NCBI RefSeq assembly: GCF_013167455.1
Contig: NZ_CP038328.1
Length of the DNA: 64,000 bases
Reading direction: 5' to 3' (one strand)
From: Escherichia coli O157:H7
Lineage (GTDB): Bacteria > Pseudomonadota > Gammaproteobacteria > Enterobacterales > Enterobacteriaceae
Part shown: positions 8,737-57,140 of the stretch, one piece after another
Position numbering within the stretch: the first letter of the stretch is position 1
How the letters are laid out: every line of letters begins with the position of its first letter
The notes under the pieces: generated by a model
The model's input: only the letters and a program-made list of their open reading frames with translations
Told to the model about the DNA's origin: nothing
Databases searched by the model: none
Position numbers and translations under genes: made by a program

Positions 8737-9540
8737 TTAACGCTTCAGAGCGTCGCTTAACTCGTCACGCATGTTCGCCAGCATGGCTTTAACAACACGC
8801 GGGTTACCAGCAACGATGTTACCGGTCAGCATATAGTTATGACCACCGGTGAAGTCGCTGACGATGCCGCCCGCTTCACGAACAAGCAGCTCGCCTGCAG
8901 CGAAGTCCCACGGGCGCAGACCGATTTCAAAGAAACCGTCAACACGACCCGCAGCGACGTAAGCCAGATCCAGCGCCGCAGAACCGGTACGACGGAAGTC
9001 TGCACATTCGTTGAACAGTTTGCCGACGATGTTGATGTAGGTAGTGGCGTACTGTTTTGCTTTGAACGGGAAGCCGGTCGCCAGAATAGTACCGTCGAGA
9101 TCGCGAGCGGTGCTGCCGCGCAGACGGTAGCCGTTCAGCTGTGCGCCCTGACCGCGAGTGGCGGTGAACAGTTCGTTACGCATAGGATCGTATACCACAG
9201 CAACTTCGGTGCGGCCTTTGATACGAACGGCGATAGATACCGCGAAGTGCGGCAGACGTTTGATAAAGTTGGTAGTGCCATCCAGTGGATCGATAACCCA
9301 TTGAACATCCTGATCAGTACCTTCAAGTTCACCGCTTTCTTCGGTGATGATGGTGTGCTGTGGGTAAGATTTACGAATCGTGTCGATAATCACCGCTTCG
9401 GCAGCTTTATCTACGTTGGTCACGAAGTCGTTACTGCCTTTCTGGCTCGCTTCTACAGCGTCCGGGGTTTCATAGTTTTTGGCAATCAAATTACCCGCCT
9501 TGCGCGCTGCGCGCACGGCGATGTTCAGCATCGGATGCAT
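8737..9540 (-). CDS. suhB: Inositol monophosphatase family protein
   Basis: 267 aa ORF with IMPase motifs (EESG, DPLDGT, WDFAAG). Confidence 0.93.
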   Translation of the reverse strand: MHPMLNIAVRAARKAGNLIAKNYETPDAVEASQKGSNDFVTNVDKAAEAVIIDTIRKSYPQHTIITEESGELEGTDQDVQWVIDPLDGTTNFIKRLPHFAVSIAVRIKGRTEVAVVYDPMRNELFTATRGQGAQLNGYRLRGSTARDLDGTILATGFPFKAKQYATTYINIVGKLFNECADFRRTGSAALDLAYVAAGRVDGFFEIGLRPWDFAAGELLVREAGGIVSDFTGGHNYMLTGNIVAGNPRVVKAMLANMRDELSDALKR

Positions 9541-9658: not shown

Positions 9659-10396
9659 ATGCTGCAAAATATTCGAATTGTGCTGGTGGAGACGTCACAC
9701 ACCGGCAATATGGGTTCTGTTGCCCGTGCCATGAAAACAATGGGATTAACCAATCTGTGGCTGGTTAATCCACTGGTGAAACCTGACTCCCAGGCGATTG
9801 CCCTGGCGGCGGGGGCCAGCGATGTGATTGGTAATGCTCACATCGTCGATATGCTCGACGAAGCGTTAGCCGGTTGTAGCCTGGTGGTGGGCACCAGCGC
9901 ACGTTCCCGCACGCTGCCGTGGCCGATGCTCGACCCGCGCGAATGCGGTCTGAAAAGCGTTGCTGAAGCGGCAAATACCCCGGTGGCGCTGGTGTTTGGT
10001 CGCGAACGTGTCGGCCTGACCAATGAAGAGTTGCAGAAGTGTCATTATCATGTCGCGATTGCCGCTAACCCTGAATACAGCTCGCTGAACCTGGCGATGG
10101 CGGTTCAGGTTATTGCCTATGAAGTGCGTATGGCCTGGCTGGCAACTCAGGAAAATGGCGAGCAGGTCGAGCATGAAGAGACGCCGTATCCGCTGGTCGA
10201 TGATCTGGAGCGTTTTTATGGTCATCTGGAACAAACGCTGCTGGCAACCGGTTTTATCCGTGAAAACCATCCGGGGCAGGTGATGAATAAATTGCGCCGT
10301 CTGTTTACCCGTGCGCGCCCGGAAAGCCAGGAATTGAATATCCTGCGCGGGATTCTGGCTTCTATAGAGCAGCAGAATAAAGGTAATAAGGCCTGA
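9659..10396 (+). CDS. trmJ: tRNA (cytidine/uridine-2'-O)-methyltransferase, SpoU family
   Basis: 245 aa ORF; divergent from suhB. Confidence 0.92.
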
Positions 10397-10422
10397 GGGC
10401 TAAGCCAGATAAGTGCACGGAC

Positions 10423-10463
10423 GGTCCCCTCGCCCCTTCGGGGAGAGGGTTAGGGTGAGGGGA
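10423..10463. repeat. GC-rich imperfect palindromic intergenic repeat (BoxC-like)
   Basis: ggtcccctcgccccttcggggagagggttagggtgaggggaac just after trmJ stop; nested inverted repeats, no T-tract, so not a simple terminator. Confidence 0.35.
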
Positions 10464-10563
10464 ACAGGCCTGCGCTAATGCGAATAATTGCCCTCAACCC
10501 GCCCATGGTCTGGAAGGATAACAGGTACAAACGCCACGATAAAAAAATGGCACTGAAGGTTAA

Positions 10564-10614
10564 ATACCCGACTAAATCAGTCAAGTAAATAGTTGACCAA
10601 TTTACTCGGGAATG
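10564..10614 (+). promoter_or_regulatory. IscR operator (type 1 sites) in iscR promoter
   Basis: ATACCCGACTAAATCAGTCAAGTAA at 10564..10588 matches the type 1 IscR motif ATASYYGACTRwwwYAGTCRRSTAT at 24 of 25 positions; a second weaker site follows. Confidence 0.7.
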
Positions 10615-10696
10615 TCAGACTTGACCCTGCTATGCAATACCCCCACTTTTACAATAAAAAACCCCGGGCAGGGGCGAGTTTGAGGTGAAGTAAGAC

Positions 10697-11185
10697 ATGA
10701 GACTGACATCTAAAGGGCGCTATGCCGTGACCGCAATGCTTGACGTTGCGCTCAACTCTGAAGCGGGCCCGGTACCGTTGGCTGATATTTCCGAACGTCA
10801 GGGAATTTCCCTTTCTTATCTGGAACAACTGTTTTCTCGTCTGCGTAAAAATGGTCTGGTTTCCAGCGTACGTGGACCAGGCGGTGGTTATCTGTTAGGC
10901 AAAGATGCCAGCAGCATCGCCGTTGGCGAAGTGATTAGCGCCGTTGACGAATCTGTAGATGCCACCCGTTGTCAGGGTAAAGGCGGCTGCCAGGGCGGCG
11001 ATAAATGCCTGACCCACGCGCTGTGGCGTGATTTGAGCGACCGTCTTACCGGTTTTCTCAATAACATTACTTTAGGCGAACTGGTTAACAACCAGGAAGT
11101 GCTGGATGTGTCTGGTCGTCAGCATACTCACGACGCGCCACGCACCCGCACACAAGACGCGATCGACGTTAAGTTACGCGCTTAA
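10697..11185 (+). CDS. iscR: Fe-S cluster assembly transcriptional regulator (Rrf2 family)
   Basis: 162 aa [22 protein letters not shown] with Cys ligands further on. Confidence 0.95.
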
Positions 11186-11296
11186 TAAAAAGTATTCAGA
11201 ATCAGGCCGGGGCGTATCGCGCTCCGTAAACACGGTCGTACATCCAGCCGGTAGCCTGGTTCCTTGCATTGAGTGATGTACGGAGTTTATAGAGCA

Positions 11297-12511
11297 ATGA
11301 AATTACCGATTTATCTCGACTACTCCGCAACCACGCCGGTGGACCCGCGTGTTGCCGAGAAAATGATGCAGTTTATGACGATGGACGGAACCTTTGGTAA
11401 CCCGGCCTCCCGTTCTCACCGTTTCGGCTGGCAGGCTGAAGAAGCGGTAGATATCGCCCGTAATCAGATTGCCGATCTGGTCGGCGCTGATCCGCGTGAA
11501 ATCGTCTTTACCTCTGGTGCAACCGAGTCTGACAACCTGGCGATCAAAGGTGCAGCCAACTTTTATCAGAAAAAAGGCAAGCACATAATCACCAGCAAAA
11601 CCGAACACAAAGCGGTATTGGATACCTGCCGTCAGCTGGAGCGCGAAGGTTTCGAAGTCACCTACCTCGCACCGCAGCGTAACGGTATTATCGACCTGAA
11701 AGAACTCGAAGCAGCGATGCGTGACGACACCATCCTTGTTTCTATCATGCACGTAAATAACGAAATCGGCGTGGTGCAGGATATCGCGGCTATCGGCGAA
11801 ATGTGCCGTGCTCGTGGCATTATCTATCACGTTGATGCAACCCAGAGCGTGGGCAAACTGCCTATCGACCTGAGCCAGTTGAAAGTTGACCTGATGTCTT
11901 TCTCCGGTCACAAAATCTATGGCCCGAAAGGTATCGGTGCGCTGTATGTGCGTCGTAAACCGCGCGTACGCATCGAAGCGCAAATGCACGGCGGCGGTCA
12001 CGAGCGCGGTATGCGTTCCGGCACTCTGCCTGTTCACCAGATCGTCGGAATGGGCGAAGCCTATCGCATCGCAAAAGAAGAGATGGCGACCGAGATGGAA
12101 CGTCTGCGCGGCCTGCGTAACCGTCTGTGGAACGGCATCAAAGATATCGAAGAAGTTTACCTGAACGGTGACCTGGAACACGGTGCGCCGAACATTCTCA
12201 ACGTCAGCTTCAACTACGTTGAAGGTGAGTCGCTGATTATGGCGCTGAAAGATCTCGCGGTTTCTTCCGGTTCCGCCTGTACGTCAGCAAGCCTCGAACC
12301 GTCCTACGTGCTGCGCGCGCTGGGGCTGAACGACGAGCTGGCACATAGCTCTATCCGTTTCTCTTTAGGTCGTTTTACTACTGAAGAAGAGATCGACTAC
12401 ACCATCGAGTTAGTTCGTAAATCCATCGGTCGTCTGCGTGACCTTTCTCCGCTGTGGGAAATGTACAAGCAGGGCGTGGATCTGAACAGCATCGAATGGG
12501 CTCATCATTAA
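11297..12511 (+). CDS. iscS: Cysteine desulfurase
   Basis: ORF track frame 11273..12511; start chosen at [16 protein letters not shown] (404 aa); PLP site [12 protein letters not shown], active-site SSGSACTS. Confidence 0.95.
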
Positions 12512-57094: not shown

Positions 57095-57110
57095 AGAATA
57101 AAAATAATTA

Positions 57111-57140
57111 AAGCCGACTTTAAGAGTCGGCTTTTTTTTG
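57111..57140 (+). terminator. Rho-independent terminator after upp
   Basis: aagccgactt taag agtcggcttttttttg. Confidence 0.75.

Follow-up and report, generated by a model that had tools for sequence, protein, structure and literature searches.

In Escherichia coli, IscR recognizes two classes of DNA motif, of which the type 1 class is a high-affinity target of the [2Fe-2S] protein alone (PMC6599224, PMC8561392, PMC3899308, PMC4055776). The iscR promoter of E. coli K-12 is the reference type 1 promoter, and its repression by [2Fe-2S]-IscR is a case of negative autoregulation (PMC12594620, PMC8561392, PMC4055776, PMC3899308). The isc operon has been given as the example of type I sites that are bound by holo-IscR only (PMC8561392), and the autoregulation is exerted via type 1 motifs (PMC4055776). 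By repressing the isc operon, IscR thereby represses its own synthesis too. For the K-12 sequence, it has been reported both that holo-IscR binds the fragment and that repression is lost when iscR is deleted.

The binding was quantified by the Kiley laboratory using a 30-bp oligonucleotide termed 'iscRB', AAATAGTTGACCATTTTACTCGGGAATGTC, for which an apparent Kd of 22 nM was obtained with [2Fe-2S]1+-IscR, and a Kd of >1000 nM after oxidation of the cluster by PMS (PMC12594620). Work on Pseudomonas aeruginosa cites three IscR sites at the E. coli iscR promoter, the third of which, site C, is called minor and nonconserved (PMC6599224), and reports that sites A and B are each bound independently by E. 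coli IscR (PMC6599224, PMC3899308). What is said below of the relative roles of the E. coli sites A and B draws on secondary citations of this kind. A full-text literature search with the exact site sequences found no paper.

The DNA analyzed was a stretch of 64,000 nucleotides from E. coli O157:H7 (NCBI RefSeq assembly GCF_013167455.1, contig NZ_CP038328.1), hereafter the window, and the features of the locus within it are listed below.

8737 to 9540, minus strand: suhB, open reading frame
9659 to 10396, plus strand: trmJ, NCBIfam equivalog well above cut-off
10564 to 10588, plus strand: IscR type 1 site A, ATACCCGACTAAATCAGTCAAGTAA, distal, directly 5' of the -35 hexamer, 24/25 to the consensus
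10589 to 10613, plus strand: IscR type 1 site B, ATAGTTGACCAATTTACTCGGGAAT, promoter-proximal, holding the -35 hexamer, 22/25 to the consensus
10593 to 10598, plus strand: putative -35 hexamer, TTGACC, within site B at site positions 5-10
10616 to 10621, plus strand: putative -10 hexamer, CAGACT, 17-nt spacer from TTGACC, starting 2 nt past site B
10697 to 11185, plus strand: iscR (start codon at 10697), NCBIfam IscR equivalogs NF008110 (344.7 bits) and TIGR02010, above cut-offs
11186 to 11295, plus strand: iscRS 'iscR stability element', Rfam RF01517, 127.8 bits, E = 3.4e-34, full model
11297 to 12511, plus strand: iscS, NCBIfam equivalog well above cut-off

Downstream of iscS follow iscU, iscA, hscB, hscA, and fdx, while sites A and B lie 168 nt past the trmJ stop codon and 84-133 nt ahead of the iscR start codon. 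The cognate regulator is intact, with an IscR protein identical to that of K-12 in which E43 and the cluster ligands C92, C98, C104, and H107 are all present. The RF01517 element, located outside the operator, is a separate layer of post-transcriptional control on the isc operon, and it takes part in the differential decay of isc mRNA that depends on RyhB.

The two sites were scored against the 25-bp IscR type 1 consensus ATASYYGACTRWWWYAGTCRRSTAT, which is given letter for letter in PMC6599224 and PMC3899308 and in four papers in all. The sequence-only reading had claimed a 24/25 match to the type 1 motif, and this was borne out, with ATACCCGACTAAATCAGTCAAGTAA found exactly at 10564-10588 on the plus strand and an A in place of T at position 25 as its sole mismatch. 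Site B departs from the consensus at three positions, 10, 17, and 23, where it has C, C, and A, respectively. The sites adjoin without a gap at 10588/10589, both on the plus strand, and both are AT-rich at their ends. The span originally proposed, 10564-10614, was thus exact at its start and ran 1 nt past the end of site B at 10613. The consensus itself owes part of its derivation to these two E. coli sites, which makes the 24/25 score partly circular; taken alone, it does not count as independent evidence. Independent support for the operator comes instead from conservation across genera and from the published binding data.

The region between trmJ and iscR (10380-10720) is 100% identical to several O157:H7 chromosomes, and positions 10518-10719, which take in the two sites with the promoter, 5'UTR, and start of iscR, equal K-12 MG1655 (NC_000913.3) base for base. 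Of 5426 complete E. coli genomes, 5424 contained exactly one match to a 161-bp operator query, and in 5420 the identity was at least 99%. E. coli strain 27992 (L002, NZ_CP195627.1) was the only partial-coverage match among the 12 matches listed (5424 genomes). It carries a natural 44-bp deletion, aligned to window positions 10527-10570, that removes ATACCCG, the left half of site A, along with what lies 5' of it, and leaves site B and the promoter intact.

The distal part of the trmJ-iscR spacer (10397-10517), which lies upstream of the operator, differs from K-12. The spacer measures 451 bp in K-12, where it holds REP-type repeats, and 300 bp in the present strain, where a different GC-rich, hairpin-forming repeat is found (for example at 10433-10462). 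When positions 10397-10517 were included in the query, at least 80% of it was covered in only 1432 of the 5426 genomes, with a median of 5 matches per genome, and the GC-rich spacer repeat is therefore multi-copy.

The published iscRB oligonucleotide corresponds to window positions 10587-10616 in all but one base, reading ACCATTTT as printed and ACCAATTT in the genome, K-12 included. Over the stretch concerned, ACCATTTTACT is printed (PMC12594620) where both the window and K-12 have ACCAATTTACT. This one-base difference reflects either a misprint or a deliberate redesign of the central AT tract.

The iscR promoter was placed from the register of its elements across genera. A generic sigma-70 scan of 10380-10720 called no promoter, and it missed this one because TTGACC/17/CAGACT scores 8/12 against a threshold of 9/12. 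Transcription is predicted from the sequence to start near 10628-10629. In E. coli, we take site A to span -65 to -41 and site B -40 to -16 relative to +1.

The iscR 5'UTR (10629-10696) is some 40 nt longer in Escherichia, Citrobacter, and Enterobacter than in Yersinia, Vibrio, Shewanella, and Pseudomonas, the distance from the start of site B to the ATG being 105-108 nt in the first group and 59-69 nt in the second. It contains a conserved GC hairpin, CCCCGGGCAGGGG, at 10661-10675. A minus-strand call resembling a terminator, at 10675-10661, was rejected, as it represents this same 5'UTR hairpin and terminates no gene on that strand.

Conservation of the operator was examined by collecting orthologous loci with a degenerate DNA pattern encoding KGRYAVTAM, a peptide of IscR, from contigs representing one genome per species, which yielded at least 120 loci. 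Of the 120 loci listed, 99 were usable (full-length IscR and at least 250 nt of upstream sequence), and 80 of these 99 had iscS downstream. The taxa represented among the listed loci include Enterobacterales, Vibrionaceae, Shewanella, Pseudoalteromonas, Aeromonas, Pseudomonas, Marinobacter, Halomonas, and many uncultured Gammaproteobacteria. Among them, 76 of the 80 iscR-iscS loci had a site scoring at least 19/25 no more than 300 nt 5' of iscR. Over the 99 usable loci among those listed, the highest score found in the 300 nt upstream had a mean of 21.7, compared with 15.8 for shuffled sequence, and the density of sites scoring at least 19/25 in the listed loci was 5.04/kb in the 300-nt upstream regions versus 0.033/kb in the remaining 691 kb, a difference of ~ 150-fold.

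The proximal sites of the listed loci keep the promoter elements in register. In 64 of the 76, TTGAC is found at site positions 5-9. For the left half of site B, conservation as operator and conservation as -35 hexamer are confounded. A hexamer with A2 and T6 (CATAAT, CATACT, or CAGACT) starts 2 nt past the proximal site in 56 of the 76 listed loci, giving a 17-nt spacer. An abutting, A-like upstream site scoring at least 17 was found in only 35 of the 76 loci from other genera among those listed. When nine Enterobacterales upstream regions were aligned, their mean identity to the window rose from 0.49 in the upstream flank to 0.85 in site A and 0.92 in site B, and stood at 0.82 over the -10 region; in this alignment conservation begins sharply at the left edge of site A. 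It is therefore the lower-scoring site B, not site A, that carries the -35 hexamer and is the more widely conserved across Gammaproteobacteria. A second, weaker site had been proposed to follow the first; ATAGTTGACCAATTTACTCGGGAAT does score lower, but by position and conservation site B is the core of the operator.

Four of the 80 listed iscR-iscS loci, L072, L085 (Halomonas), L033, and L066, had no recognizable type 1 site, their best scores being 14-15/25. L085 has kept the left half only, ATAGTTGACC. These four may have diverged operators or misplaced start codons. In some genera an extra type-1-like site lies 0.9-1.2 kb 5' of iscR, as in L087 (Vibrio hepatarius, 11362-11386), L025, L021, L051, and L066; such sites scored 21/25 at -914 in two Vibrio species and 25/25 at -1182 in an Orbaceae genome. 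The extra site of L087 falls in the divergent suhB-trmJ spacer, just 5' of trmJ, which suggests IscR control of trmJ in that species. The suhB-trmJ spacer of the present E. coli has no site scoring 18/25 or more.

One interpretation of the conserved block is that it represents a core promoter only, that is, a -35 hexamer with an AT-rich upstream element contacted by RNA polymerase, its likeness to the IscR motif being incidental. The TTGAC inside site B, the fixed register of the hexamers, and the AT-rich ends of both sites would all fit such an arrangement. However, the position table of proximal sites shows that the right half-sites are also conserved (AGTC/ACTC, then GG, then AT), and these have no role in sigma-70 recognition. 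Site A, moreover, is a 25-bp dyad with GACT/AGTC arms that lies wholly 5' of the -35 hexamer. The same motif is present at other IscR-repressed promoters, namely those of erpA, nfuA, and tpx (PMC6599224, PMC12594620, PMC4055776), and direct binding of [2Fe-2S]-IscR to the iscRB oligonucleotide has been published (PMC12594620). Taken with these points, a core promoter devoid of operator function is very unlikely.

It could also be that the sites are bound by another regulator of the Rrf2 family, such as NsrR, or that they are type 2 sites for apo-IscR. Rrf2 proteins read AT-flanked dyads of similar length, and the IscR open reading frame itself gives sub-threshold matches to the NsrR, CymR, and RirA models. 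Note, however, that the sites stand directly 5' of iscR in 76 of the 80 listed loci, which ties them to IscR. As type 2 sites they were rejected, since against the type 2 consensus AWARCCCYTSNGTTTGMNGKKKTKWA site A reaches 15 of 26 and site B 16, both at the level of the window background, which extends up to 21, compared with 24 and 22 of 25 against type 1. Either version of this reading is accordingly most improbable.

The significance of the match was assessed over the whole window. Sites A and B were the only matches to ATASYYGACTRWWWYAGTCRRSTAT with three or fewer mismatches in the 64 kb, and shuffling the window 100 times with its dinucleotides preserved produced none. From the window base composition, a Poisson-binomial calculation gave chance expectations, for 64 kb and both strands, of 9.9e-6 sites with at least 24 matches and 4.3e-3 with at least 22. 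In the score distribution of the window the bulk extends up to 18/25, with one further site at 21/25. That third-best match, AAAGCCGACTTTAAGAGTCGGCTTT at 57110-57134, is of a kind expected 0.05 times per window, and it was rejected as an IscR site: it is a perfect hairpin with a T-run behind it, placed immediately 3' of the upp stop codon and ahead of the next open reading frame, which identifies it as an intrinsic terminator with an accidental palindromic likeness. The next best consensus score in the trmJ-iscR spacer was 15/25, which is background, and site C was thus not placeable by consensus. That sites A and B are chance palindromes of an AT-rich intergenic region can be dismissed, for although a palindromic consensus favors any GACT...AGTC hairpin, as the 21/25 of the upp terminator illustrates, the sites adjoin exactly, and chance is excluded by the statistics (about 1e-5 and 4e-3 expected per window at the two score levels) together with conservation across orders of Gammaproteobacteria.

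Positions 10564-10613 are therefore almost certainly the two abutting type 1 sites, A and B, of the iscR promoter, at which [2Fe-2S]-IscR binds and represses iscRSUA-hscBA-fdx, iscR included. The binding, its dependence on the cluster, and the repression are carried over here from the literature on the identical K-12 sequence, and we infer the exact transcription start and the mechanism of occlusion. In the proposed mechanism, dimeric IscR carrying a [2Fe-2S] cluster would bind sites A and B. Occupancy of site B would cover the -35 hexamer and the spacer to 2 nt ahead of the -10 hexamer, and a second dimer on site A would extend the complex upstream. Because site B covers the -35 hexamer and spacer, with site A directly upstream, bound IscR would be expected to block RNA polymerase, and its exclusion would lead to repression of iscRSUA-hscBA-fdx and of iscR with it. 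A rise in Fe-S demand, or oxidation or loss of the cluster (through O2, redox cyclers, or iron limitation), would cause IscR to leave the type 1 sites and the operon to be derepressed. The outcome would be a negative feedback loop in which Isc synthesis is matched to demand.

The departures of the two sites from the consensus may carry some meaning in this operator. The mismatch states of site B (C10, C17, and A23) are common in the proximal sites of many genera among the listed loci, and the A at position 25, as in site A, is the majority state of the distal sites (25 of the 35 among the loci listed). That the states of site B are shared by many genera suggests a sub-maximal affinity. A tentative explanation, which we consider possible but rather less than probable, is that these departures are not random decay: the proximal operator would be kept sub-maximal in affinity by its duty as -35 hexamer and spacer, while site A would be an accessory, lineage-variable site that sets the steepness of the feedback.

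The sequence-only reading had described the sites as the autoregulatory operator of the isc operon, and this is supported by the K-12-identical sequence, by the iscRSUA-hscBA-fdx locus, and by the published autoregulation of the K-12 iscR promoter. A characterized operator had thus been recognized correctly from the letters alone. The finding is the K-12 iscR operator, unchanged; it is already known, and nothing new is added to it. The operator is the link from sensor to output in the feedback by which E. coli and its relatives adjust Fe-S cluster biogenesis to demand, and it is a model for a cofactor-dependent switch of DNA specificity by one transcription factor.

With respect to known systems, the type 2 sites of hyaA and sufA are recognized by the same protein and share the AT-rich flanks of the type 1 sites described here. 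They differ in having another half-site, which sites A and B do not match, and in being bound by apo-IscR as well. The E. coli erpA/yadR and nfuA/yhgI promoters carry the same 25-bp motif and show holo-IscR-specific repression (PMC12594620, PMC4055776). They lie outside the window and, unlike PiscR, they are not autoregulatory. In E. coli, the erpA and nfuA promoters have one site each and are not known to carry a tandem pair. In P. aeruginosa, nfuA and tpx have a single type 1 site apiece at their promoters (PMC6599224).

In the iscR promoter of P. aeruginosa PAO1, too, a pair of 25-bp type 1 sites lies end to end, site A covering -67 to -43 and site B -42 to -18 (PMC6599224, PMC3899308). These positions are relative to a +1 determined by primer extension, and the arrangement of the -35 hexamer and site B is the same as in E. 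coli (PMC6599224, PMC3899308). Site B of PAO1, ATAGTTGACCTAATTACTCGGATAA, is nearly the same as site B of E. coli and carries the -35 hexamer (PMC6599224), and repression requires [2Fe-2S]-IscR, as it does in E. coli (PMC6599224, PMC3899308). In PAO1, site B is the primary, high-affinity site, whereas site A matches the consensus poorly (68%), has low affinity, and is filled stepwise or cooperatively from site B (PMC6599224, PMC3899308). The E. coli site A is, at 24/25, a better match to the consensus than its PAO1 counterpart. No third site C was found in PAO1, unlike E. coli (PMC6599224).

Closest of all is PiscR of K-12, with its iscRA and iscRB sites, which has the same sequence over 10518-10719, the same gene order, and the same IscR protein. 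It differs only in the distal trmJ-iscR spacer, 10397-10517, and the present O157:H7 strain thus carries the K-12 operator and promoter region unchanged.
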